Assembly: GCA_043814055.1 (NCBI GenBank)
Contig: JBDRKL010000012.1
Coordinates: 8,596 to 72,595 of the forward strand
Length of the DNA: 64,000 bases
Origin: an archaeon
Lineage (GTDB): Archaea; Undinarchaeota; Undinarchaeia; Undinarchaeales; JBDRKL01
Direction of reading: 5' to 3'
Part shown: positions 282 through 63,761 of the stretch, piece after piece
How positions within the stretch are numbered: the first letter of the stretch is position 1
How the letters are laid out: each line of letters begins with the position of its first letter
Made by a program: the position numbers and the translations under genes
Notes under the pieces: model-generated
Told to the model about the DNA's origin: nothing
Databases searched by the model: none
Seen by the model: only the letters and a program-made list of their open reading frames with translations

Positions 282-479
282 TTGTACCTCCCCAGGTAAA
301 CAATCTCTCAGAGAGAAACTGTGTAGTTAGAGAAGTATGAGTGTGTTTATAAAGATTGTTATTCTCCGGCTGATCCAAACCCACGTAGTGGGTTGGACAA
401 CTCACAAACCCGCCAAAGCGGGTTGCGCAACGCACATCAGTGCGTTTGCGCTGTCGCGAGTTTGTCCCGGAGGAAGAGC

Positions 480-583
480 GTCCCGCATGACGTTGGTTAT
501 GCTGCACAATGAAACGCCAGAGATTTTTAACAGTTTATATTGCTGGCGATTCATTGTGGCGGGACTGCTGAGTAAGTTGAGTG
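480..583 (-). repeat. R-family two-hairpin element (copy R5) in the 23S trailer, carrying a nested 54-nt hairpin (505-558)
   Basis: Minus strand reads CAACTTACTCAGCAGTCCCGC[CACAATGAATCGCCAG...CTGGCGTTTCATTGTG]CAGCATAACCAACGTCATGCGGGAC. It has the same GTCCCGC/GCGGGAC stem and AGCAUAAC-type loop as the copies at 26271-26301 and 26499-26529. Confidence 0.5.
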
Positions 584-660: not shown

Positions 661-3610
<2,950 letters not shown>

Positions 3611-3828
3611 AAGTCTACGTCTATGCGGGACCAATGTTACATATTCCCGTGCAGACTAAAGCACGGAATGTAAGGCCGGTCATCGGGCATTGGGCTGTCG
3701 GGAGCCGTACCCTCGAGAACCTCTTCACTCCCACCCCAATAGATCTGGGAGTTGTGTCATCAATGAATTGATGATTGTGATTTCGAAGCGTGAGCTTCGA
3801 AAGACACCCAATTATTTGGGTGTGATGT

Positions 3829-4152
3829 TTAGTCAATTACCCGGCGAGCCACATCTTTTATTTTCTTCGCAGTGTCGTCGTGAAGGTCTTTTGCTGCTTT
3901 CGCTGCTTCGACCATTTTAGTAAGGAGCTTGTCTGCATCTGGCGCCTGCATTAGAGTATGAGATGCCAATGCATCGCTCTCTAGAGAGACTGCAGCTGTA
4001 AGTGCAAGATCTGTTCGGTTCAATGCCAAAATAAGGGACTCAAAATGTTCCCCTGCATCTCTGACATCCTTTTCAGATTCTGTAAGATCTTTTTCTACTT
4101 TGATTAGTGCATCTCTAAATGATTCAATTACTCTTTCTATATCTTCAGACAT
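3829..4152 (-). CDS. hypothetical 107-aa helical acidic protein encoded inside the tRNA-Ala/23S spacer
   Basis: Intact ORF on the same strand as the rRNAs. GAGGTGA lies 7 nt upstream of the ATG (rc of 4160-4166) and a CTTTAAAG box lies ~45 nt upstream. No motif recognised. Confidence 0.6.
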   Translation of the reverse strand: MSEDIERVIESFRDALIKVEKDLTESEKDVRDAGEHFESLILALNRTDLALTAAVSLESDALASHTLMQAPDADKLLTKMVEAAKAAKDLHDDTAKKIKDVARRVID

Positions 4153-9723: not shown

Positions 9724-9798
9724 TGCCCCAGCCGGGATTCGAACCCGAGTCTCCGCCTTGAAAGGGCGGAATGATTGGCCGGACTACACCACCGGGGC
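9724..9798 (-). tRNA. tRNA-Glu (anticodon UUC)
   Basis: GCCCCGG-TG-GTGTAGTCCGGCCAATCAT-TCCGCC-CTTTCAA-GGCGGA-GAC-TCGGG-TTCGAAT-CCCGG-CTGGGGC-A. No intron and no encoded CCA. Confidence 0.9.
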
Positions 9799-9990
9799 AG
9801 GTTTTTACCAATGTGCACCGAGATACAAAGCTTTTTTCGTCAACGTTTTTGCGAAGCAAAAAGGTTGGACTTCACACCACCGGGGCAACTTTATGTGCGC
9901 CAGGCAATGTACTTTTCTTTTGGTCAAGCTTTTCTTCGTAAAGAAAAGATTGCCGTTGAGTACACCACCGGGGCAACTTTAAGCTATAGG
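9799..9990 (-). repeat. two tandem 88-bp units, each starting with a copy of the tRNA-Glu 5' end (GCCCCGGTGGTGT)
   Basis: The exact 13-mer occurs at 9786-9798 (real tRNA), 9874-9886 and 9962-9974, a spacing of exactly 88 and 88 nt. Each unit has the tRNA 5' fragment, an A/T hairpin, TTGAC(C/G)AAAA, and a ~41-45 nt spacer. Confidence 0.8.
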
Positions 9991-10101: not shown

Positions 10102-10213
10102 TGGGCCCGTCGTGATTCGAACACGAGACCTCACGCTTTCGCAAGCGTGCCCGCATTTTGTGCGGAACACAGCCATATAAGGCGTGCGCTCCACCAGGCT
10201 GAGCTACGGGCCC
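10102..10213 (-). tRNA. tRNA-Ile (anticodon UAU) with 38-nt intron at 37/38 (intron about 10138-10175)
   Basis: GGGCCCG-TA-GCTC-AGCCTGGTG-GAGC-G-CACGC-CTTATA|intron|A-GCGTG-AGGTC-TCGTG-TTCGAAT-CACGA-CGGGCCC-A. The GGGCCCGTAGCTCAG start is typical of archaeal tRNA-Ile. The anticodon TAT reads from 10179-10177. Confidence 0.8.
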
Positions 10214-10349
10214 AAACTTTTATTTAGCCTATGGTTTTGGTTTCCGATGAACTGACCCGATAAGGCCGCAGCATCACCAAAGTGATGCGGCCTAACGCCC
10301 CTCCGCCGCTGTGCGGAGAGCTCCACGGGCCCAAACTTTTATTTAGCCT
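10206..10349 (-). repeat. 25-nt perfect direct repeat (10206-10230 and 10325-10349) bracketing a 94-nt R-family insertion (copy R4, 10231-10324)
   Basis: ACGGGCCCAAACTTTTATTTAGCCT occurs twice. It comprises the last codons and stop of ileS, 6 nt, and the first 8 nt of tRNA-Ile. The intervening sequence holds the hairpins GGCCGCAGCATCACcaaaGTGATGCGGCC and CTCCGCcgctgtGCGGAG. Confidence 0.85.
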
Positions 10350-13269
10350 TGTCAAACCCAATGCTTATCTCCTTGTCCTCGAATTTGCACTCGCCGGAAA
10401 CTTTTGCTTTTACTGGTAGTTCGGCTATATCAATCTTTTCAGCGCCGACTTTCAGCACGATTTCCTCGCGGAACTTGTTCAGTGCCCTGCGTGCAAATTC
10501 GTCTGAACTGGAGAATGTGACGTTGATTTTCTCATCAACCTTGAATTCGTTCTTCTTTCGCAACACCTGGACTGCGCGCATTACCTCGCGGGCTAGCGCT
10601 TCTTCCAGAATTGCTGGGGTGAGCTCGTTGTCCAGCACGAGCTTGCCGAACTCAAATTCTTTTTCAATTCCTTTTGTGCTTCCTGCCTTGAGCTCTTTCA
10701 CATTTGCCTGTGTTTTTATGACTTGCTCAAATGTTTTCAAGGCCTTCTTGACTTTGTCATCACCTTCAACTGCTAGAGTCTTGAGCGGCCAGCGGAGTTT
10801 TACTTTTGCTTCCTCGCGGGCAAAGAATGATGCTTCCACAATGCTGCGCGCGATTTTCATTTCTTCCTCAAGCTTTGCGTCTATTTTCTTTGAGTCCGGT
10901 TTTGGCCAGCTGAGCATGTGGATTGATTCCGGAGCTTTCTTGTCCAAAGGTTTTACAATTGCCTGGTATAGTTCCTCTGTGAGTATTGGGAGGATTGGCG
11001 CGGCTAAAATAAGGTACTGCTTGAGCACGTCATACAAGACCTTGAAAGCTGTGAGCTTGTCCGAGCCCTTTGCCGAAACCCAGGTTCGGTCGCGTATTAA
11101 TTTAATATACCAGCGCGAGAGATCCTCAACCATAAAGTCGCGCAGGAGCGGCGGAGCGTCAGGGAATTCCATATCCTCAAACGCCTGCGTAACCTGCTGG
11201 TTTAGAGTATTTATTCTTGAGATTATCCACTTGTCCTCGGGCTTGAGCTTTTTCGTGTCAAGCTTGAACTCTTCTGGGTTGAAGCCTTCAACATCCATGT
11301 ATTTCGCGAACTGCGCAACGTTCCAGAGAATGTTCAACGCTTTGTAAGCCTCGTCCATGTCTTTCCAATTCACGCGCAGGTCTTCGCCAGACCGCGAAGC
11401 TCCGAGGCAGTAAAGCCTCCAGGCTTCTGAGCCGATTTTTTCAATTACTTCAGAAGGTTCAATTACATTGCCAAGTGATTTTGACATCTTCGCGCCTTTC
11501 TCGTCCGAGATAAAGCCGTGCATGTAAACGTTCTTGTAAGGAGTTACGCCGTGAGAGACCATTGAGAGGCAGAGCTGAGAGTTGAACCAGCCGCGGATTT
11601 GATCCTTTCCTTCTGTGATGAAATCTGCAGGCCAGAGCTTCTTGAACTCCGTTTCATCTTTTGGGAATCCGAGCGATGCCCAGGTCGCTGCGCCTGAGTC
11701 CAGCCACACGTCAAGAATGTCCGGGATTCTGCGCATTTCCTTGCCGCACTCTTCGCACTTGAATGTTACCTTGTCAACGTGAGGCCTGTGGAGCTCTTTC
11801 ACGTCTGCATTGAGCTCTGCGCGTGAGCCGATTACTTTCACGTGGTTGTTCTCACAGCGCCAAATTGGCAATGGAATGCCCCAGTATCGTTGTCTTGAAA
11901 TGCACCAGTCCTGAATGTTCTCAAGCCAGTCGCGGAACCATCGCTCGCCAGCCCAGTCCGGACTCCACTTGACTTTCTTGTTCTCCGCAATGAGCTTATC
12001 CTTCATTTTTGAAACGCCGAGATACCACTGCTCTGTGGCTCTGTAAATAATCGGAGACTTGCAGCGCCAGCAGTGCGCGTACTCGTGCGAAACAGGGGTT
12101 TTCATCGCGAGAATTCCTTTTTCCTTGAGAACGTCAATGAATTTCGTGTTGTCCTTGCTCGCGTTCCAGCCTTGGTATTTCCCGCCGAGCTCGTTGAAGT
12201 CCCCGTTCTCTTCAACAACTGTAAATGCTGGAATGTCCAATTTCCTGCCAACATCAAAGTCCTCTGCGCCGCAGCCAGGGGCTGTGTGCACGCAACCTGA
12301 GCCTGCGCTGAGAGTTACGAAACCGTAGAACATCTCGTCTGAGACCGGCTGGATTGTGTAGGCGTTCGGGTATTTCTTGTGCATTTCCTCATGGACTGGC
12401 ATGTCCCCTGCGAATGGGTTGACATATTCAATTCCTTTCAGTTCACTGCCTTTCAGGGTTTCAACAACCTCGTACTTCTTCTCCATCATACCCATCAATG
12501 CAATTACGAACGGCTTTGCAAGAATCCAATACTCGTCTCCGACTTTGATTTTTGCATAGTCAAAATCAGGGTGCACCGCGACCATCATATTCATCGGGAG
12601 CGTCCAAGGTGTGGTTGTCCAGATTAAAACATACTCGTTCTTTTTTCCGCGGAGCTGGAACTTGACGTAAACTGAAGAGTCTGTTACTGTTTCGTATTCA
12701 AGCTCGTGCTTCGCGAGCGCAGTTGCGCAGCGCCAGCACCAGGTGACTGAGCGCGGGCCTGTGAAGAGAAGACCTTTGTCATGTGCTTTTTTGAGCGCCC
12801 ACCAGGCGCCTTCAATATAGGAGTCGTCAATTGTGCGGTATGGCTTGTCCCAGTCCATCCACACGCCGAGCCGGGCGAACTGCTCATTCATCTTCGCGAG
12901 ATTGTCAAGCGCGAATTTCCTGCAGTTGTCAATGAACTTGTCCATGCCAACGCCGGTTTCAATTTCTTTCTTGTTCTTGATGCCCATCAGCTCTTCAACT
13001 TTCACTTCAATCGGTAGGCCGTGCATGTCGTAGCCCGGCTGGGACCTGACGCTGTAGCCCTGCATTCGCTTGTAGCGCAGAATTGAATCCTTGAGAACTT
13101 TGTTCCAGGCGGTTCCAAGGTGGATGTTCCCGGTTGTGTATGGCGGGCCATCGTTGAAGTACCATTTCTTGTCCTTCTCGTGGAGCTTCTGGACTTTTTC
13201 AAAAATTTTCCCGTCTTTCCAGTACTTGAGAATCTTTTCCTCGGTTTCCTGCGGCTTGAATTGTTCCAT
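10339..13269 (-). CDS. ileS: isoleucyl-tRNA synthetase
   Basis: 976 aa with class I motifs PPYTTGNIHLGTAWN (HIGH-type) and KGAKMSKSLGN (KMSKS), plus a CP1 editing-domain-sized insertion. Confidence 0.95.
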   Translation of the reverse strand: MEQFKPQETEEKILKYWKDGKIFEKVQKLHEKDKKWYFNDGPPYTTGNIHLGTAWNKVLKDSILRYKRMQGYSVRSQPGYDMHGLPIEVKVEELMGIKNKKEIETGVGMDKFIDNCRKFALDNLAKMNEQFARLGVWMDWDKPYRTIDDSYIEGAWWALKKAHDKGLLFTGPRSVTWCWRCATALAKHELEYETVTDSSVYVKFQLRGKKNEYVLIWTTTPWTLPMNMMVAVHPDFDYAKIKVGDEYWILAKPFVIALMGMMEKKYEVVETLKGSELKGIEYVNPFAGDMPVHEEMHKKYPNAYTIQPVSDEMFYGFVTLSAGSGCVHTAPGCGAEDFDVGRKLDIPAFTVVEENGDFNELGGKYQGWNASKDNTKFIDVLKEKGILAMKTPVSHEYAHCWRCKSPIIYRATEQWYLGVSKMKDKLIAENKKVKWSPDWAGERWFRDWLENIQDWCISRQRYWGIPLPIWRCENNHVKVIGSRAELNADVKELHRPHVDKVTFKCEECGKEMRRIPDILDVWLDSGAATWASLGFPKDETEFKKLWPADFITEGKDQIRGWFNSQLCLSMVSHGVTPYKNVYMHGFISDEKGAKMSKSLGNVIEPSEVIEKIGSEAWRLYCLGASRSGEDLRVNWKDMDEAYKALNILWNVAQFAKYMDVEGFNPEEFKLDTKKLKPEDKWIISRINTLNQQVTQAFEDMEFPDAPPLLRDFMVEDLSRWYIKLIRDRTWVSAKGSDKLTAFKVLYDVLKQYLILAAPILPILTEELYQAIVKPLDKKAPESIHMLSWPKPDSKKIDAKLEEEMKIARSIVEASFFAREEAKVKLRWPLKTLAVEGDDKVKKALKTFEQVIKTQANVKELKAGSTKGIEKEFEFGKLVLDNELTPAILEEALAREVMRAVQVLRKKNEFKVDEKINVTFSSSDEFARRALNKFREEIVLKVGAEKIDIAELPVKAKVSGECKFEDKEISIGFDKAK

Positions 13270-14919: not shown

Positions 14920-17607
14920 ATGGCTGAATATTATAGTTTAAGCGCATCAGAAGCAATCAAAACCCTGAAGAGCTCTGGGAAAGGTCTGACCAGCCAAGAG
15001 GCTAGAAAGCGGCTGGAAGAGTTTGGACCAAATGAGCTGAAAAAAGAGACTGGGGCAACTGTTTTGCACATTTTTTTGAACCAGTTCACAAACGCGCTTA
15101 TTTTATTGCTAGTATTTGCAGGCGTTCTGTCCCTGGCCTTGGGGGAGATGATAGAGGCAGTGGCAATTTTTATAATAATACTGCTCAACGCAGTTCTTGG
15201 GTTTTTTCAGGAGTACAGGGCGGAAAAATCAATTGAGACCCTTGAAAGGATGTCAGCCCCCACGGCAAGGGTTCTGCGCGACGGGAAAGAGCAGAAAATT
15301 CCGGCAAGGGAAGTCGTGCCAGGGGACATTCTTTTGCTTGAGGCAGGGGACATTGTTTCAGCGGAAACGCGGCTCGTGGAGGTTTCAAGCCTGCAGATAG
15401 ACGAGGCGTCGCTGACCGGGGAATCCGTACCATCAGCCAAAACCACGGAGCAGTTTGGGCCTGGCACTTCAGTGGCTGATCAGGAGAACATCGCCTTTAT
15501 GGGAACCACAGTAACGTATGGGAAGGGGAAAGGCATTGTAATCAGCACGGGCATGAAAACAGAGTTCGGAAAAATTGCCGCTTCCCTGCAGGAAACAAAA
15601 GAAACTGAAACCCCGCTGCAGAGGAAATTTTCAGAGCTCGCTAGGCAGATAGGCATCATAACAATCGTCCTTATTGCAATAGTTTTTGTCTCCGGCACAA
15701 TCCAGGGGACTTTGTCAGTTGCAAAAATGCTTTTGCTGGCTCTGGTGCTCACCGTGTCCACAATTCCAAATTCATTGCCTCTGGTTGTTACTGTCGGGCT
15801 GTCAATGGGGACAAACCGGCTGGCAAAGAAGAACATGCTCGTCAAGAAGCTTTCCGCAGCGGAAAGCCTAGGCGCGGCAACCATTATTTGCAGCGACAAG
15901 ACCGGGACTATAACGAAAAACCAGATGACCATAACGGAAATGTTTTACAGCGACCAACGAATCAAGGTGAGCGGGGCCGGCTATGAGCCAGAAGGTAGTT
16001 TTTACGCCAGAGGCAAAAGGATTGACCCTGAGCAGCTTGAACTGCCCCTGCGCATAGGCTGCTTGTGCAACAATGCAAAGCTGGTTGAAAAAAGCGGCGA
16101 GTGGGGGATTCTCGGTGACCCGACCGAGGGCGCCTTGGCAGTCCTTGGAAAAAAGGGAGGGCTTGAAGAGGATGAATTGCTCCGCAATTTCTCTTTTGTT
16201 ACAGAGCTGCCATTTGACTCGGACAGGAAAAAAATGTCCGTCATATTTAAAAATGAGGTCAGCAAGAAGACAGAGGTCTATGTTAAAGGAGCCCCTGACC
16301 TTCTTCTGGATTCGTGCAGCAGGATAATTGAGAACGGCAAAGTGAGGAAACTCACAAAGAGGGACAGGGAAAAAATTCTTGAGACGAACGATTCTTTTGC
16401 AGGAAGAGCGCTGCGGGTTCTTGCCCTTGCATACAGGGAGCTTCCAGCGTCCAGTAAGTACAGCATTGAAAGCGTGGAAAAGGACCTAATATTCGCCGGG
16501 CTTGTAGGCATGATTGACCCGCCGAGAGATGGGGTCAGGCAGGCGGTTAAGGAGTGCTGGGAGGCGGGGATAAAAGTTATGGTGATAACAGGGGACCATG
16601 CCCTAACGACCAAGGCAGTGGCCCAAAAAATCGGATTGTTCAGGCGCGGGGACATTGTGCTCACAGGGGACGAAGTTGAAAAAATGAGCGATGCCGAGCT
16701 TGAGGGAAAGATTGAAAAAGTCAGGATTATTGCCAGAGCCCTGCCCATCCAGAAATTAAGAATTGTTGACATCCTGCAAAAGGGTGGGCACATTGTGGCA
16801 ATGACAGGTGACGGGGTGAACGACGCGCCCGCCCTGAAGAAGGCCGACATTGGGATATCAATGGGCATCACTGGCACTGACGTGGCCAAGGAAGTTTCAA
16901 AAGCGATCCTTGTGGACGATAATTTTGCCACAATAGTGAACGCCATTGCAGAGGGGAGGAACATCTACAACACTTTAATCCGGTCTGCCAGGTTCTTCCT
17001 TTCATGCAACACAGGGGAGATAACTGCGGTGTTTGTTGCGATAATGCTTGCATTTCCGCTCCCCCTGCTGCCGCTGCAGATTCTGCTCATGAACATGCTT
17101 ACTGACAATTTCCCGGCTCTAGGTCTTGGGTTTGAGCCGAGAGAGGAGGGGATTATGAAACGGAAGCCAAGGGACCCAAAAGAGAAGCCGATTACGAGGA
17201 GAGTATTCCTGTCAATAATTATCTTTGGATTAATAATGGGGCTGGGAACTTTGTTCATGTTCGTGCAATACGTAGACATTCACCTGGGCAAAGCACAGAC
17301 AGTGGCGTTCACAACGCTTGTAATGTTCCAGATGTTTGCCGTAATGAGTAGCAGGACGCTGTACCCCTCAAGAAAGCACCTTAATCCTCTCTCAAACATG
17401 TGGCTGTTCAGCGCGGTTTGCCTGTCGCTAGTCATACAACTGGCGGTTATTTACTGGTCTCCGCTGCAGTTAATCTTCGGAACCGTCCCTCTGCTTGGGG
17501 TTGACTGGCTCAAAATCATCGGCATCTCAAGCATGGGATTCGTGATGATGGAGATAAGCAAGCTTTTTGTTGGGGAGAGCAAGCCTCAGGCGGTTTGCCT
17601 CGTGTAG
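14920..17607 (+). CDS. P-type cation-transporting ATPase (type II, Ca2+/cation-like)
   Basis: 895 aa with the phosphorylation motif CSDKTGTITKN, TGES, and the hinge MTGDGVNDAPALKKADIGISMG. Confidence 0.9.
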   Translation: MAEYYSLSASEAIKTLKSSGKGLTSQEARKRLEEFGPNELKKETGATVLHIFLNQFTNALILLLVFAGVLSLALGEMIEAVAIFIIILLNAVLGFFQEYRAEKSIETLERMSAPTARVLRDGKEQKIPAREVVPGDILLLEAGDIVSAETRLVEVSSLQIDEASLTGESVPSAKTTEQFGPGTSVADQENIAFMGTTVTYGKGKGIVISTGMKTEFGKIAASLQETKETETPLQRKFSELARQIGIITIVLIAIVFVSGTIQGTLSVAKMLLLALVLTVSTIPNSLPLVVTVGLSMGTNRLAKKNMLVKKLSAAESLGAATIICSDKTGTITKNQMTITEMFYSDQRIKVSGAGYEPEGSFYARGKRIDPEQLELPLRIGCLCNNAKLVEKSGEWGILGDPTEGALAVLGKKGGLEEDELLRNFSFVTELPFDSDRKKMSVIFKNEVSKKTEVYVKGAPDLLLDSCSRIIENGKVRKLTKRDREKILETNDSFAGRALRVLALAYRELPASSKYSIESVEKDLIFAGLVGMIDPPRDGVRQAVKECWEAGIKVMVITGDHALTTKAVAQKIGLFRRGDIVLTGDEVEKMSDAELEGKIEKVRIIARALPIQKLRIVDILQKGGHIVAMTGDGVNDAPALKKADIGISMGITGTDVAKEVSKAILVDDNFATIVNAIAEGRNIYNTLIRSARFFLSCNTGEITAVFVAIMLAFPLPLLPLQILLMNMLTDNFPALGLGFEPREEGIMKRKPRDPKEKPITRRVFLSIIIFGLIMGLGTLFMFVQYVDIHLGKAQTVAFTTLVMFQMFAVMSSRTLYPSRKHLNPLSNMWLFSAVCLSLVIQLAVIYWSPLQLIFGTVPLLGVDWLKIIGISSMGFVMMEISKLFVGESKPQAVCLV

Positions 17608-19508
17608 TTCAGCTTGCCACCAGCCAGGAGGATTTGCATGAACCTTTTGGTCAGGCTATGCCTAACCTTGATTGGCCCGCCGTTGTATTTTATTGTAAAC
17701 TCTGCACTACAGTTCTTCATATGCGCCTTGATGCCCAGGATTTCAATTTTGCCGCCCTGCTTTATTTTGTTGTAGTCAGATTTGTCCGCAAACTCCAGGG
17801 GAATTATGCCAAAGTTGATTAGGTTGTCCTTGTGGATTCGCGCAAAGGATTTTGCAATCACTGCCTTGACCCCTAAGTACATTGGAGCGAGGGCTGCGTG
17901 CTCCCTTGAGGAGCCCTGACCATAATTTTCTCCGCCGATTATGAAGCCGCCCTTGTTCTTCTTTGCGCGGTTCACAAATTCCGGGTCAACCTGCTCAAAT
18001 ACATAGTCTGAAATTGCAGGAAGGTTGCTGCGCAGAGGAAGAAGTTTTGCCCCTGCCGGCATTATGTGGTCTGTGGTTATGTCATCACCAACTTTTAGAA
18101 GGACTTTTCCTGTGAGCACTGCAGGGAGCGGGTTCATTTTTGGGAGAGGCTTGATGTTTGGGCCGCGGATTATTTTGATATTTGAATTGGATTTTGGCGG
18201 CTTGATTATCATTCTGTCATCGATTGTGAATTTTGCAGGCAGTTTTACATCAGGGCACTTGCCGAGCTTTCTCGGGTCTGTGATTTTTCCAGTTAATGCG
18301 CAGGCAACTGCAGTTTCAGGGCTGCACAGGTATGCTTTCGCGCTTTTTGTCCCGCATCGGCCCTCAAAGTTGCGGTTGAAAGTCCTGATTGTAACCGCGT
18401 TTGTTTGCGGTGCCTGGCCCATTCCAATGCAAGGCCCGCAGGCGCACTCCAGAACTCTTGCGCCTGATGCAATTATGTGGGAAAGTTCTCCTGTCTCAGC
18501 AAGTTCATTTAAGACTTGTTTGGAGCCTGGGCTGATTGTGAGTGAAACATCAGGGTGAACTGTTTTTCCTTTGAGCATTGCAGCAACTGTCTTGAGGTCT
18601 TTGAGCGATGAGTTTGTGCAGGAGCCAATGCAGACTTGCTGGACTGGGGTTCCTGCGACTTGGCTGACTTTCACAACATTGCCTGGGCTGTGCGGCTTTG
18701 CGATTAAAGGTTCAAGCTTACTGAGATTTATTTCAATTGTTTCATCGTATTTCACCCCAGAATCTGCGCTCAACGCCTGCCAGTCTTTTGCGCGACCCTG
18801 CGCAGTAAGGAATTTCTTTGTAATATTGTCTGAGGGGAAGATTGATGTGGTTGCTCCGGTCTCGGTGCCCATATTCGTGATTGTGCCGCGCTCAGGAACT
18901 GTGAGCGTTAAGATGCCTGGGCCGTAGTATTCCAATATTTTTCCAACTGCGCCTTTCACCCCGAGTTTTCTGAGCACTTCAAGTATCACATCTTTGGCTG
19001 CAACGCAGTTCGGGAGTTTTCCTGTGAGTTTTACCCCTACAATTTTTGGAACTTTCACGTAGAATTCCCCGCCGCCCATTGCAACTGCAACATCCAAACC
19101 TCCAGCGCCGATTGCGATTGAGCCAACTCCGCCTGCAGTTGGAGTGTGCGAGTCTGAGCCGAGGAGAGTTCTGCCAGGTCTTGCGAAGCGCTCAAGATGG
19201 AGCTGATGACAGATTCCGTTACCGGCTCTTGAGAGAAGAATTCCATACTTTTCGGCAATGCTCTGCAGGAACTTGTGGTCGTCCGCGTTGCGGAAGTCGC
19301 TCTGGAGCGTGTTGTGGTCAATGTAAGAAACCGAGAGCTCGGTCTTGACTTTCTTGACACCCATTGCCTCAAATTGGAGGTAGGCCATTGTGCCTGTTGC
19401 GTCCTGGGTGAGCGTTTGGTCTATCCGTATTGCAATCTCGCTGTCCGGCTCCCACTTGCCTTTCACTATGTGCTTTTCAAGGATTTTTTGAGCCAGGGAT
19501 TTTGCCAT
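17586..19508 (-). CDS. acn: aconitate hydratase (fused aconitase catalytic plus swivel domains)
   Basis: 640 aa with Fe-S ligand motifs IGSCTNSS and CGPCIGMG and a C-terminal swivel GENYGQGSSREHAA. Confidence 0.85.
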   Translation of the reverse strand: MAKSLAQKILEKHIVKGKWEPDSEIAIRIDQTLTQDATGTMAYLQFEAMGVKKVKTELSVSYIDHNTLQSDFRNADDHKFLQSIAEKYGILLSRAGNGICHQLHLERFARPGRTLLGSDSHTPTAGGVGSIAIGAGGLDVAVAMGGGEFYVKVPKIVGVKLTGKLPNCVAAKDVILEVLRKLGVKGAVGKILEYYGPGILTLTVPERGTITNMGTETGATTSIFPSDNITKKFLTAQGRAKDWQALSADSGVKYDETIEINLSKLEPLIAKPHSPGNVVKVSQVAGTPVQQVCIGSCTNSSLKDLKTVAAMLKGKTVHPDVSLTISPGSKQVLNELAETGELSHIIASGARVLECACGPCIGMGQAPQTNAVTIRTFNRNFEGRCGTKSAKAYLCSPETAVACALTGKITDPRKLGKCPDVKLPAKFTIDDRMIIKPPKSNSNIKIIRGPNIKPLPKMNPLPAVLTGKVLLKVGDDITTDHIMPAGAKLLPLRSNLPAISDYVFEQVDPEFVNRAKKNKGGFIIGGENYGQGSSREHAALAPMYLGVKAVIAKSFARIHKDNLINFGIIPLEFADKSDYNKIKQGGKIEILGIKAHMKNCSAEFTIKYNGGPIKVRHSLTKRFMQILLAGGKLNYTRQTA

Positions 19509-26250: not shown

Positions 26251-26327
26251 GTAGTTTGACTTGCTTGGCAGTCCCGCAGCATCACAAACTTAACGCGGGA
26301 CAATTTGTCAACTGAATTTGCAGTTGT
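26251..26327 (+). repeat. R-family two-hairpin element (copy R1), abutting the tRNA-Asn 5' end
   Basis: GTAGTTTGACTTGCTTGGCA-GTCCCGC-agcatcacaaacttaac-GCGGGAC-aatttgt-CAACTGaatttgCAGTTG-t. Hairpin 1 is 26271-26301 and hairpin 2 is 26309-26326. Confidence 0.65.
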
Positions 26328-26452
26328 GCCTCTGTAGCTCAGCGGTAGAGCGTCTGGCTGTTATCACAAAGCGCGCTTTGTGAATCATCACGAAGCGCAG
26401 CGAAGTGATGGGTACCAGAAGGTCGCAGGTTCAAATCCTGCCGGAGGCGCCA
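26328..26452 (+). tRNA. tRNA-Asn (anticodon GUU) with 50-nt intron at 37/38 (26364-26413); CCA encoded
   Basis: GCCTCTG-TA-GCTC-AGCGGTA-GAGC-G-TCTGG-CTGTTA|intron|A-CCAGA-AGGTC-GCAGG-TTCAAAT-CCTGC-CGGAGGC-G-CCA. The intron forms two hairpins (TCACAAAGCgcGCTTTGTGA and CATCAC..GTGATG). Confidence 0.88.
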
Positions 26453-26477
26453 ATCTTATTTTCATTTATTTAACCAA

Positions 26478-26556
26478 AGGCAAACAAATAGCTTGGCAGT
26501 CCCGCAGCATAACAAACTTAACGCGGGACAATTTGCCGGCGTAATTTGACGCCGAT
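26478..26556 (+). repeat. R-family two-hairpin element (copy R2), 3' of tRNA-Asn
   Basis: GGCAAACAAATAGCTTGGCA-GTCCCGC-agcataacaaacttaac-GCGGGAC-aatttg-CCGGCGtaatttgaCGCCG. Hairpin 1 is nearly identical to R1, and hairpin 2 has a completely different but still complementary stem. Confidence 0.65.
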
Positions 26557-29055: not shown

Positions 29056-29197
29056 AAAAAATGGCCCGGGTAGTTCATTGGCAACCTTTTTCTTTTCACA
29101 AAAGAAAAAGCTCGAACGCGCACAGCGCGTTGAGCAACTCGCTGTCGCGAGTTTGTTTGACCAAAAAGAAAACTTCGGACCGATTTGCGAAAAAAAT
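29056..29197 (+). repeat. 135-bp unit beginning with a 20-nt copy of the tRNA-His start region (pseudo 5' fragment), then a hairpin module (copy M4)
   Basis: AAAAAATGGCCCGGGTAGTT occurs at 29056-29075 and again at 29191-29210, where it is the real tRNA start. After the first copy comes CATTGGCAACC + CTTTTTCTTTTcacAAAAGAAAAAG + two GC hairpins (29110-29135, 29136-29153) + TTGACCAAAAAGAAAA (29157-). Confidence 0.8.
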
Positions 29198-29273
29198 GGC
29201 CCGGGTAGTTTAGTGGTTAGAATTGGAGACTGTGGATCTTCAGACGCGAGTTCAATTCCCGCCCTGGGCCCCA
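29198..29273 (+). tRNA. tRNA-His (anticodon GUG) with genome-encoded G-1, C73 and CCA
   Basis: G(-1)-GCCCGGG-TA-GTTTAGTGGTTAGAAT-T-GGAGA-CTGTGGA-TCTTC-AGAC-GCGAG-TTCAATT-CCCGC-CCTGGGC-C-CCA. One A.C mismatch in the T stem. Confidence 0.85.
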
Positions 29274-29276
29274 TTC

Positions 29277-29360
29277 AACCTTTTTTCCCTTGCGATTGGG
29301 GGAAAAAGCTTGACCAAAAATCAGGGGCGTTCGCTCGCTACGCTTGCGAAGCCCCACTTC
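29277..29360 (+). repeat. hairpin + CTTGACCAAAAA module (copy M5) plus a 32-nt GC hairpin in the hisS leader
   Basis: AACCTTTTTTCCCttgcgattGGGGGAAAAAG-CTTGACCAAAAA (29309-29320), then GGGGCGTTCGC..GCGAAGCCCC (29324-29355). Confidence 0.6.
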
Positions 29361-40562: not shown

Positions 40563-40669
40563 GTCTCAGATCGCCCATCACTCATCACCTTATCAGATCG
40601 ATGTCGGATCTTCATTGACAGCTTATGTTAATAAATAAACTAATATAAATAGTGTTTTAAGTTGCGGTT

Positions 40670-58897: not shown

Positions 58898-58902
58898 TAC
58901 AA

Positions 58903-59012
58903 CCTTTTTCCGCGAAGGCGCGCAAAAAGCTCAAACACACAAAGTGTGTTGAGCAACACGCTGTCGCGTGTTTGCTTGACCAAAAAAATTCGCTTCGCTC
59001 GAAAGGTAGAAT
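58903..59012 (+). repeat. hairpin module (copy M7): CCTTTTT..AAAAAG hairpin, two covarying GC hairpins, then CTTGACCAAAAAAA
   Basis: AACCTTTTTCCGCGAAGGCGCGCAAAAAG + GCTCAAACACACaaaGTGTGTTGAGC (58929-58954) + AACACGCtgtcGCGTGTT (58955-58972) + TGCTTGACCAAAAAAA. TTGACC lies 37 nt before the ATG at 59013. Confidence 0.65.
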
Positions 59013-62020: not shown

Positions 62021-63670
62021 ATGACACAAATGGGAGGGCAGCCTGTCTACATTATGTCAGACAAGGCGCAGAGGACCATGGGCAGGGATGCCCAGCGAAT
62101 GAACATCATGGCCGGTCGAATAGTTGCCGAGACCGTGAGAACTACTTTAGGCCCGAAGGGAATGGACAAGATGCTTGTTGATTCTTTGGGCGATGTTGTG
62201 ATTACGAACGACGGCGCGACCATACTGACCGAGATGGACATAAACCACCCGGCAGCGAAGATGCTGGTTGAGGTCGCGAAGACCCAGGACAAAGAGGTCG
62301 GCGACGGAACAACTACAGCTGTTGTTATCGCAGGCGAGCTCCTGAAGAAGGCAGAGGAGCTTTTGGACCAGGGCATACACCCGACAGTCATAACAAGGGG
62401 TTACCGCCTGGCGAACGACAAGGCTCAGGAAGTGCTGGAGAGCATTGCCGAGAATGTCTCGCACACCGACAGGGACACGCTTGAGAAAATCGCAATGACC
62501 GCGATGACCGGAAAATCAGCTGAGAGGGCAAGAGAAAGTCTTGCGAAGCTCGCTGTTGAGGCAGTCACGCTGGTCGCTGATGAACGCGATGGAAAAAGGA
62601 CAGTGAACCAGGACAATATCAAGCTGGAGAAGAAGCAGGGCGGCTCAATTGACGACTCAGAGCTGATAAAAGGGATTATACTTGACAAGGAAAGAGCCCA
62701 CTCTGGAATGCCAGAGCGCGTTGAAAAAGCAAAGATCGCTTTGGTTGACGCTGCGATTGAAATCAAGAAGACAGAGACCGACGCTGAGATAAGCATCACA
62801 GACCCGAGCAAGCTCAAGGACTTCCTTGACCAGGAAGAGAACATGCTGAAAGAGATGGTTGAGAAGGTCAAGAAGTCTGGCGCGAACGTGCTGTTCTGCC
62901 AGAAGGGCATAGAGGACATTGCACAGCACTTCCTAGCAAAGGCAGGAATCCTGGCTGCGCGAAGGGTTAAGAAGAGCGACATGGACGCGCTCGCAAGGGC
63001 CACGGGCGGAAAGGTTGTTTCAAGCCTTGACAGCCTGACAGAAAAGGACCTTGGCTACGCAGGCATTGTTGAGGAGAAGAAAATTGCAGGCGACGAAATG
63101 ATGTTCGTGACCGGCTGCAAGTCCCCGAAAGCTGTTTCCGTTCTAGTGAGGGGCGGGACAGAGCACGTTGTGGACGAGGTTGAGCGCGCATTGAAGGACG
63201 CAGTCGGCGGAGTCGCATCTGCAATTGAGCTTGGAAAAATTGTTGGCGGCGGCGGGGCTGTTGAGATGGAAGTCGTGAAGGAGCTGAGAAAAGCTGCTGA
63301 GAAAACAGGCGGCAGGGAACAGCTCGCAATGACAGCTTTCGCAGACGCGCTGGAAATCATTCCAAGAACCCTTGCTGAGAACGCAGGTCTTGACACAATA
63401 GACAAGCTCGTTGAGCTCAGGAGCCAGCACGAGAAAGCAGGAAACAAATGGATCGGGCTTGACGTGTTCACTGGAAAGACTATGGACATGTACAAGGAAG
63501 GCGTCATAGAGCCGCTCAAGATAAAGACGCAGGCGATTAAGAGCGCGTCAGAAGCGGCAGAAATGATTCTGCGCATAGACGACATTATCAGCGCAAGGAA
63601 CATGAGTGAGTCCGGCGGTGGCGGTGGAATGCCGCCTGAAGGAATGGGTGGAATGCCAGGGATGATGTAA
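62021..63670 (+). CDS. ths: thermosome subunit (group II chaperonin)
   Basis: 549 aa with [28 protein letters not shown] and the C-terminal GGM-type tail [26 protein letters not shown]. Confidence 0.95.
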
Positions 63671-63761
63671 GGCCTCGGTCTGTTTAGCCCACTTCGCGAA
63701 GCGAATGTGGGTGCTCACCCTCCGCGAGCAGGCGGAGGTGTGGATGCCGGGGATGATGTAG
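63649..63761 (+). repeat. imperfect ~21-nt direct repeat of the thermosome 3' end bracketing a 70-nt two-hairpin insertion (copy R6)
   Basis: GGAATGCCAGGGATGATGTAA (ends at 63670) versus GGATGCCGGGGATGATGTAG (ends at 63761). Between them lie CCCACTTCGCgaaGCGAATGTGGG and CCTCCGCgagcagGCGGAGG. Confidence 0.7.

Follow-up and report, generated by a model that had tools for sequence, protein, structure and literature searches.

Introduction

How the leaders, fragments, introns and split forms of archaeal tRNA genes originate is a long-standing question, and to our knowledge the agents proposed so far for the disruption of tRNA genes are large integrating elements. In the cases attributed to integrases, an element of 1.8-23 kb with a recombinase gene lies between the repeats, which are attachment (att) cores within conserved tRNA sequence (PMC3293823, PMC9897764). 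Casposase integrates short duplexes and leaves a duplication of 15 bp overlapping a tRNA 3' end (A. boonei casposon), or of 16-22 bp at off-target sites (PMC5137440). The present analysis concerns a 64,000-nucleotide stretch of archaeal DNA (contig JBDRKL010000012.1, positions 8,596 to 72,595; hereafter the window), in which a perfect 25-nt direct repeat encloses a 94-nt hairpin-forming insert between ileS, the gene for isoleucyl-tRNA synthetase, and the gene for tRNA-Ile.

Several further systems produce repeats or small hairpin insertions. In clustered regularly interspaced short palindromic repeat (CRISPR) arrays the duplication has the length of the repeat, roughly 24-37 bp. Among insertion sequences (IS), the IS1634/IS1549 group of the IS4 family makes long, variable repeats. 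Miniature inverted-repeat transposable elements (MITEs) of archaea typically leave duplications of roughly 2-10 bp, whereas repetitive extragenic palindromes and bacterial interspersed mosaic elements (REP/BIME) and the palindrome-associated elements derived from IS200/IS605 insert without target duplication and rely on HUH (Y1) transposases.

Results and Discussion

A perfect repeat at the ileS/tRNA-Ile junction

The 25-mer ACGGGCCCAAACTTTTATTTAGCCT has exactly two copies, which match without mismatch, at 10206-10230 and 10325-10349. Independent repeat scans concur, and no such pair is expected by chance (0 in 100 dinucleotide shuffles). The features of the locus are as follows, in the direction of transcription; the cassette families are defined below.

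10339-13269, minus strand: ileS, isoleucyl-tRNA synthetase, 976 aa, from the list of open reading frames (ORFs); Pfam tRNA-synt_1, Anticodon_1, DUF5915
10341-10339, minus strand: ileS stop codon TAA, inside repeat copy 1
10325-10349, minus strand: repeat copy 1, ileS-proximal; ileS end, stop codon, AAGTTT, orphan tRNA-Ile nt 1-8
10231-10324, strand unassigned: type-1 cassette insert, 94 nt; on the plus strand tail, hairpin A, 7-nt spacer, hairpin B
10301-10318: hairpin B, CTCCGC-CGCTGT-GCGGAG, the motif common to three type-1 inserts
10264-10292: hairpin A, GGCCGC-AGC-ATCAC-CAAA-GTGAT-GCGGCC, with a 3-nt bulge; member of the AGCATCAC hairpin family
10206-10230, minus strand: repeat copy 2, tRNA-proximal; orphan ileS end and the real tRNA-Ile nt 1-8
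10102-10213, minus strand: tRNA-Ile(UAU), Rfam 53.7 bits
9990-10101, minus strand: tRNA-Ile 3' trailer cassette; CAACTTC hairpin and AGCATCAC-type hairpin

On the minus strand each copy reads AGGCTAAATAA-AAGTTT-GGGCCCGT, the last part being nt 1-8 of tRNA-Ile. The first 8 nt of the tRNA gene itself (GGGCCCGU) sit within the tRNA-proximal copy, and the ileS reading frame ends ...AAG GCT AAA TAA inside the ileS-proximal copy. A preliminary description, made from the letters of the window alone, had reported this duplication around the 94-nt insert, the content of its copies and two hairpins between them. Both copies were located exactly, the ORF and Rfam placements agree with the content given, and the insert folds as DNA at -20.2 kcal/mol (z = -4.07), a stability reached by 0/200 shuffles.

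The encoded IleS is a 100% match to the IleS of an NCBI metagenome-assembled genome (P0001). The anticodon loop of the tRNA, CUUAUA, assigns it to Ile-UAU, and its intron of ~38 nt at position 37/38 is the reason that ARAGORN missed the gene. The tRNA-Ile species with anticodon UAU is rare in archaea.

The insert occurs as a single copy within the window and the relatives' DNA, and has no ORF, no phage or plasmid similarity and no Rfam match. Over its full length it resembles the tRNA-Ile trailer (57/85 aligned positions, z = 5.0, 0/500 shuffles), which itself stops at the TATA box of the neighbouring tRNA-Glu unit. The insert is therefore a paralogue of the trailer and a member of a family of tRNA-trailer cassettes.

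The junction is uninterrupted in most relatives

Relatives were taken from protein-database IleS homologues (61-75% identical), and the DNA around seven of them (62-75% identical) was examined; L084 is identical to L083 and so carries no information on strain polymorphism. A scan of a genome collection with IleS gave relatives at <=46% identity among the matches listed. The order amino-acid permease, ileS, tRNA-Ile(UAU) is kept in 7/7 relatives. In five of the seven the junction is empty, ileS abutting or overlapping an intron-containing tRNA-Ile, and the corresponding uninterrupted sequence expected for the window is ...GACAAGGCTAAATAAAAGTTTGGGCCCGTAGCTCAG... The junctions read:

L081: ileS stop codon within the tRNA, at tRNA positions 13-15
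L082, L083 and L088: stop codon, 3 nt, tRNA
L089: stop codon, 10 nt, tRNA
L086: Zn-ribbon-like small ORF between the genes, ~175 nt (12929-13105)
L087: AAAAGTTGGGACCGTAGC twice, 18/18 identical (12918-12935 and 12997-13014), around 61 nt
Window: 25/25 repeat around 94 nt

Because the junctions in relatives are empty, direct abutment of ileS and tRNA-Ile is ancestral and the window arrangement derived. The preliminary description had supposed just this history, with tRNA-Ile once directly after the ileS stop codon and an element inserted later, and had proposed looking for an empty site at orthologous junctions; five relatives supply it. L087, in which the ileS stop codon TAG is made by tRNA positions 8-10 of the first repeat copy, represents a second, independent event at the same junction, since its repeat span and its insert (18/18, type-2 cassette) differ from those of the window.

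As to the tRNA itself, a tRNA-Ile(UAU) was found after ileS in all eight clade genomes (window and relatives); in L089 (6087-6289) its intron is ~130 nt long.

The signature recurs at tRNA ends and at a thermosome stop codon

The window contains 14 short-range direct repeats against ~1 in mononucleotide shuffles, and all the non-coding ones sit at tRNA ends or at the end of the thermosome gene. The recurrence at tRNA-Glu, tRNA-His and the thermosome, already remarked on from the letters alone, was confirmed, and further cases were found in relatives:

9958-9981, 9870-9893 and 9782-9805, minus strand: three copies of the tRNA-Glu 5' end at 88-nt spacing, with two 64-nt type-2 cassettes between
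9724-9798, minus strand: intact tRNA-Glu
29056-29081 and 29191-29216, plus strand: tRNA-His 5'-end repeat, 135 nt apart, with a 109-nt type-2 cassette carrying two extra hairpins
63653-63669 and 63744-63760, plus strand: thermosome 3'-end repeat, 16/17 identical, 91 nt apart
63671-63740, plus strand: thermosome type-1 cassette, ~70 nt, directly after the stop codon
L082 tRNA-Asn, 5' end: 15/15 repeat, 71-nt insert
L083 tRNA-Leu, 5' end: 32/32 repeat, 134-nt insert
L083 tRNA-Asn, 3' end: 18/19 repeat, 136-nt insert
L083 tRNA-Ile, 3' end (by reading): GCCCACCACAAACTTTT recurs as CCCCACCATAAACTTTT ~190 nt downstream; an older site

This brings the count to at least nine events, spread over five genomes (~230 kb of DNA) of a single clade of uncultured marine archaea. 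The repeats measure 15-32 nt (lengths 15, 17, 18, 19, 20, 25, 26 and 32) and the inserts 61-136 nt, or ~190 nt at the one older 3'-end site. Landing sites are the first 8-32 nt or the final nucleotides of tRNA genes and, once, a thermosome stop codon, where the repeat is the last 17 nt of the ORF, stop codon included. Within the window, 3/5 tRNA genes are affected against 1/59 protein genes (Fisher p = 9e-4). In every 5' case with its own promoter, tRNA-His among them, it is the truncated first copy that has the TATA box upstream of it. At tRNA-Glu the repeats of the two units are 20/20 identical, whereas the cassettes match at only 43/64 nt (~67%; alignment z = 6.6), which argues for repeated insertion at one spot.

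Unduplicated counterparts exist in relatives for every 5'-end case and for the thermosome case. The tRNA-Glu of L082 and the tRNA-Leu, tRNA-His and tRNA-Asn of L087 are without duplication. The thermosome 3' end is empty in L150 (same genome as L082), whose stop codon directly precedes the spacer and terminator that in the window follow the second repeat copy. These loci establish a lineage-wide insertion process that duplicates 15-32 bp of target, recurs at tRNA ends and draws on two cassette families.

Three trivial or familiar readings were set aside. An assembly artefact is rejected, as assemblies made independently (NCBI, JGI, ENA) show the signature mid-contig and two samples carry an identical L083 tRNA-Leu event. 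A decayed tandem duplicate of the adjacent gene is rejected because the inserts are at chance similarity to the gene body (z = 0.95 for Ile, 1.0 for L083 Leu, -0.3 for L082 Asn) while the repeats are perfect (25/25, 32/32, 15/15). For the Ile locus this agrees with the claim in the preliminary description that 25 nt of target were duplicated. A CRISPR array at the tRNA-Glu locus is likewise rejected: what would be its spacers are type-2 cassettes homologous to each other (z = 6.6), the repeated unit is the 5' end of tRNA-Glu, and no cas genes were found.

The recurrence also bears on whether the repeats could be att cores, that is, remnants of site-specific integration by a tyrosine or SSV/pNOB8-type integrase whose element has since been almost entirely deleted. 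Archaeal integrating elements commonly duplicate tRNA gene fragments (PMC9897764), a 5' fragment of tRNA-Thr is on record in Caldiarchaeum (PMC3293823), and the L083 tRNA-Asn 3' case carries a degenerate copy of much of the 3' half of the gene. Such remnants would nonetheless have to account for nine inserts that all measure 61-190 nt and contain neither an ORF nor a remnant of a recombinase gene. In addition, 17/25 bases of the Ile repeat are ileS end and spacer, different in every relative; these unconserved, non-tRNA bases would not be carried by an incoming element. Many different repeats at many sites would require many specificities, and the stop codon of a protein gene is also targeted. 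Remnants of this kind are therefore considered highly improbable. The preliminary description had offered both a repeat-duplicating mechanism and recombination at a tRNA att site. The former, whether by staggered cutting or by replication, fits better; the latter is the least supported, because of the non-tRNA bases in the repeat, the lack of a recombinase or its remnant between the copies, and the different repeats at many sites.

Some neighbouring observations concern the same genes. In the window, tRNA-His (29199-29270) lies directly upstream of hisS. A 45-nt repeat (26263-26535, plus strand, 44/45 identical), a AGCATCAC hairpin module, flanks tRNA-Asn (26328-26449; intron 50 nt). In the hairpin after each 45-nt copy the loop AATTTG is kept and the stem is wholly swapped (CAACTG/CAGTTG vs CGGCGT/ACGCCG). 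The orientation of this tRNA-Asn relative to the neighbouring phosphoribosyltransferase gene is inverted compared with L087. For the thermosome, the closest relative (L149, 82% identical) has at 11654-11800 ~110 nt with three different hairpins between the stop codon and the conserved spacer/terminator. A clear repeat is lacking there, and an older insertion of this type may lie behind it. One other thermosome homologue, 75% identical, is labelled Undinarchaeales.

Two families of trailer cassettes

On alignment, the inserts form two families of tRNA-trailer spacer cassettes that also serve as the normal 3' trailers of stable RNAs in this clade. Type 1 comprises the Ile and thermosome inserts of the window and the L082 Asn insert. 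These GC-rich cassettes consist of a variable tail, hairpin A, a spacer of ~7 nt, the motif C-CTCCGC-N6-GCGGAG and 3-6 nt before the repeat. The hairpin CTCCGC-N6-GCGGAG occurs three times in ~116 kb against 0.05 expected. All three copies, from two genomes, lie within repeat-flanked inserts, 3-6 nt from one insert end, and no further copy is present in 230 kb of clade DNA. The L082 Asn and L083 Leu inserts both contain GCCGCGNAGCGGCACTC; a metagenome scan with the motif of these two inserts gave 59 unrelated matches, mostly from gut bacteria, and did not recover the L082 and L083 contigs themselves. The orientation of type-1 cassettes relative to transcription varies, hairpin B coming first at Ile and L082 Asn and last at the thermosome, which argues for an event at the DNA level.

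Type 2 comprises both Glu inserts and the His insert of the window and the L087 Ile insert. The module runs CAAC(C), T-run, variable loop, A-run, and then G(C/T)T(T/C)GA(C/T)CAAAAA; the tail after the T-run/A-run terminator hairpin is TTGACCAAAA, and in short form the module is CAACC, terminator hairpin, GCTTGACCAAAAGAAAA. The inserts begin with CAAYC (CGATC in L087), 0-8 nt from the end of the tRNA fragment. The module can be aligned across 10 sites in three genomes, and is the normal trailer of tRNA-Ala, tRNA-His, a C/D box small RNA (sRNA) and the fibrillarin gene, as well as of tRNAs in L083 and L087. A 39-nt stretch of the His insert matches the intergenic module at 58948-58986 with 92% identity. 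By count, the tail T(T/C)GACCAAA(A)GAA begins 40-41 nt upstream of a tRNA in three independent events (window 29310-29325 and 9918-9927; L087 ~12964-12976). Judging from this spacing, the tail, T(T/C)GACCAAAAGAA, may double as an A-rich promoter distinct from the usual AAANCTTTAAATA box of the clade.

Since the cassettes are also ordinary trailers, the layout could in principle arise if the junction-tRNA-trailer unit was duplicated in tandem and the upstream copy then lost its tRNA body. The result would be exactly the observed order of 5' fragment, trailer-type cassette and intact gene, and such an origin agrees with the homology of the Ile insert to the trailer of the same tRNA (z = 5.0) and with the His insert and the His trailer both being type 2. 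The ages do not fit: the repeat is 25/25, with ~31 positions unconstrained in one copy or the other, against 57/85 between insert and trailer, so that the two similarities differ in age and the Ile insert is not a recent copy of the local trailer. Nor is such a cassette present as the gene's own trailer at tRNA-Glu (window), tRNA-Asn (L082) or tRNA-Ile (L087). The same two-step accident would be needed many times, and the thermosome case would stay unexplained. We regard this origin as unlikely.

A different possibility is that selection maintains the arrangement as a functional RNA device, either a bulge-helix-bulge (BHB) intron-like element or a small RNA made from the tRNA 5' fragment with its own promoter and terminator. 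A TATA box lies ~25-30 nt upstream of the truncated first copy and, in type-2 cases, a T-run terminator within ~10 nt, an arrangement that could yield a short 5'-fragment RNA, and the copies of the Glu fragment agree at 20/20 positions although their cassettes are at ~67%. Against such a device, no BHB motif can be formed between the repeat copies on inspection of the sequence, no Rfam match appears even at relaxed thresholds, type-1 cassettes occur in both orientations with respect to transcription, and the sites are not conserved between genomes. The probability assigned to it is accordingly very low. The relaxed Rfam search covered two type-1 inserts and the L083 Leu locus.

Specific structural candidates were also rejected. 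For a BHB intron, the minimum-free-energy fold pairs two GGGCCC palindromes and has no 3-4-3 bulge-helix-bulge geometry; on inspection, the succession of stem strand, 3-nt bulge, palindromic 4-mer and complementary stem strand that such an intron needs is absent from the repeat. Hairpin A is not a kink-turn or a C/D or H/ACA sRNA, its stems being Watson-Crick paired with no boxes or pocket (inspection). A tRNA-like cloverleaf is not general to the inserts, although the pairing GGCCCG/CGGGTC is possible for Ile.

Further copies of the modules were observed outside the repeat-flanked sites. The module after the fibrillarin gene (58898-59012, plus strand) differs from the tRNA-His insert by compensatory stem changes (CGCGC/GCGCG vs CACAC/GTGTG), which imply selection for the hairpin structure. 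A type-2 terminator module directly follows an unannotated C/D box sRNA at ~40563-40614 (minus strand), missed by Rfam, which has its own TATA box and the boxes C AUGAAGA, D' CUGA, C' GUGAUGA and D CUGA. The 23S rRNA 3' trailer (~470-575, minus strand) contains the module copy CAGTCCCGC...AGCATAACCAACGTCATGCGGGAC with a second hairpin, CACAATGAATCGCCAG...CTGGCGTTTCATTGTG, inside it; a hairpin within a hairpin suggests nested insertion. This minus-strand copy also disposes of an apparent plus-strand bias of the AGCATCAC modules (4/4). Minihelix-like GGGGC...GCCCCA hairpins follow type-2 modules at 29325-29358 in the window and at ~13079-13125 and ~13190-13226 in L083. They mimic an acceptor stem with CCA, one of them ending in ...CCCCCACCA, and may represent tRNA remnants or processing signals for RNase P/Z before the next gene (hisS).

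Proposed staggered integration and its main rival

The explanation favoured here, with moderate confidence, is that the 25-nt repeat is a target-site duplication left by the DNA-level insertion of a non-coding cassette of ~94 bp at the ileS/tRNA-Ile junction. A mechanism of staggered integration is preferred because the cassettes have defined starts and ends beside the repeat in independent events. The target would be opened by nicks 15-32 bp apart, a pre-existing short duplex would be joined in, and the gaps would then be filled; the chemistry may be like that of Cas1-family integrases, with the enzyme presumably encoded elsewhere in the genome. An insertion would survive only if its duplication reaches across a gene boundary, since the genes on both sides are then made whole again. 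At the present junction, ileS would acquire a separate stop codon and a 3' end protected by hairpins, tRNA-Ile would acquire a 5' leader of its own, and RNase P cleavage would no longer cut beside or inside the ileS stop codon. That conflict would be extreme in L081 and L087, and its removal would account for the fixation of insertions at this one junction in two lineages.

Several observations weigh against this explanation. Searches of the window, the relatives' DNA and collections of metagenome, viral, phage and plasmid sequences gave no near-identical second copy of the Ile insert. Genes for a transposase, integrase, reverse transcriptase or Cas1 are absent from the window, and the precomputed Pfam annotations shown for the loci of the relatives include none of these classes. 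Terminal inverted repeats are missing from the inserts, nothing at their ends is conserved beyond hairpin B, and their tail length varies; the ends of the Ile insert, GGAGCTC... and ...AACCAAAACCAT, are not complementary. A duplication length that ranges over 15-32 bp is unusual for a single transposase or integrase. Finally, where a 5' case has its own promoter, its repeat begins near the predicted transcription start, which simple staggered integration does not predict.

A serious rival is template switching into another trailer during replication or repair (as in fork stalling and template switching or microhomology-mediated break-induced replication, FoSTeS/MMBIR). A strand stalled within a heavily transcribed tRNA or thermosome gene would copy a trailer cassette elsewhere, return upstream and re-copy 15-32 nt, and no dedicated element or enzyme would be required. 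The variable lengths of repeat and insert, the absence of inverted-repeat ends and of mobile-element genes in the window, and the high transcription of the targets all suit this account. So does the character of the inserts, which look like the ordinary trailer, terminator or promoter spacers found after tRNA-Ala, tRNA-His, the C/D sRNA and the gene for fibrillarin: the Ile insert is paralogous (67%) to a normal trailer, and part of the His insert matches the 58948-58986 module at 92% over 39 nt. Template switching does not readily explain why the same hairpin stands 3-6 nt from the boundary in three independent type-1 events, spread over two genomes, or why type-2 inserts share a CAAYC/CGATC start near the end of the tRNA fragment, since random jumps predict no defined ends. 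Moreover, no donor sequence was found. We consider template switching possible, but would not expect it to prove correct.

The recurrence of these insertions in little-known marine archaea points to an undescribed way of moving small DNA cassettes. More tentatively, and with well under an even likelihood, the clade may harbour undescribed mobile 'punctuation cassettes': terminator, promoter and hairpin modules of 60-140 bp without inverted-repeat ends, pasted by a long-stagger integrase (possibly Cas1-like, possibly of an unknown kind) into the termini of tRNA genes and other highly expressed genes. Such cassettes would be a continual source of tRNA leaders and trailers, of orphan 5' and 3' tRNA fragments and possibly of non-canonical introns, and would offer a testable way in which tRNA genes become disrupted and overlapping genes uncoupled. 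The ileS junction itself illustrates how a compact genome can part abutting or overlapping genes, here a synthetase and its cognate tRNA, in one step. If an enzyme is responsible, it would be an integrase with unusually long and variable target duplications, which bears on the origin of Cas1-type integration. With young events (perfect repeats), empty and filled sites and two recognisable cassette families, the clade makes the process directly testable.

Other features of the window and its relatives

Introns have been gained, lost or replaced within the same clade in tRNA-Asn, tRNA-Glu (T-loop) and tRNA-Ile. The L083 tRNA-Glu (15511-15677) has a hairpin-rich T-loop insert of ~95 nt, and the L083 tRNA-Leu(CAA) (18190-18330) apparently has more than one intron. 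The tRNA-Asn intron is absent from L082 and unrelated between the window and L083; in L087 a LAGLIDADG homing-endonuclease-like ORF (2717-3745, minus strand) adjoins tRNA-Asn. In the rRNA operon of the window, an ORF of 107 aa with a good Shine-Dalgarno sequence (GAGGTGAAATAAAAATG) lies between tRNA-Ala and the 23S rRNA (3829-4152, minus strand), and the interior of an rRNA operon is an unusual location for a protein gene. The window also encodes ATP-citrate lyase, aconitase and the histidine and mevalonate pathways, and its GC skew tracks gene orientation, not replication direction.

Comparison with known systems

Archaeal non-canonical tRNA introns are likewise hairpin-rich insertions in tRNA genes that vary between close relatives. 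The Ile insert differs in that, with the duplication taken into account, it falls outside the mature tRNA; a BHB motif cannot be drawn for it, and its removal would be by ordinary 5'-leader processing, not by splicing.

The integrase-made tRNA fragments, such as tRNA-Thr of Caldiarchaeum and those of the Thermococcales islands, share with the present cases a partial tRNA copy in a direct repeat and a preserved gene function (PMC3293823, PMC9897764). Here, by contrast, 61-136 nt of non-coding sequence stand between repeats that reach into species-specific flanking sequence. The two marks of an integrase att site, a recombinase-encoding element between the repeats and a repeat confined to conserved tRNA sequence, are both lacking.

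REP/BIME and IS200/IS605-derived elements resemble the cassettes as short, GC-rich, imperfect hairpins at gene ends or in intergenic regions, with possible roles in termination or mRNA stabilisation. They differ in that no HUH transposase was detected here and every young copy has a duplication of 15-32 nt. The likeness to MITEs and to the IS that make long, variable repeats lies in small, non-autonomous, hairpin-forming insertions with target duplications and families of related copies. The duplication is absent from the empty sites, as it would be for a MITE, and related cassettes occur at several loci, although no second copy of the 94-nt insert was found in the 64-kb window or the collections. 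The cassettes depart from MITEs in their far longer duplications of no fixed length, the lack of terminal inverted repeats, copies that, among those found in the window and the collections, are not near-identical, and the absence of a cognate transposase from the window.

With Cas1 and casposase the cassettes share long target duplications and a target that overlaps a tRNA gene end while leaving the gene intact. The casposon pattern of a duplication of at least 14 bp over a gene terminus is present; inverted repeats are not, and no cas1 or casposase gene was seen among the window ORFs. The duplication length is moreover not fixed, and tRNA 5' ends are targeted as well as 3' ends. The tRNA-Glu locus, with three repeats at 88-nt spacing, superficially resembles a mini-array of the CRISPR type; CRISPR spacers are unique, however, and the inserts here are structured, mutually homologous cassettes of 61-136 nt. 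On these comparisons the cassettes fall outside MITEs, casposons, att remnants, BHB introns and CRISPR arrays, yet in outcome they resemble Cas1-type integration and MITE insertion.

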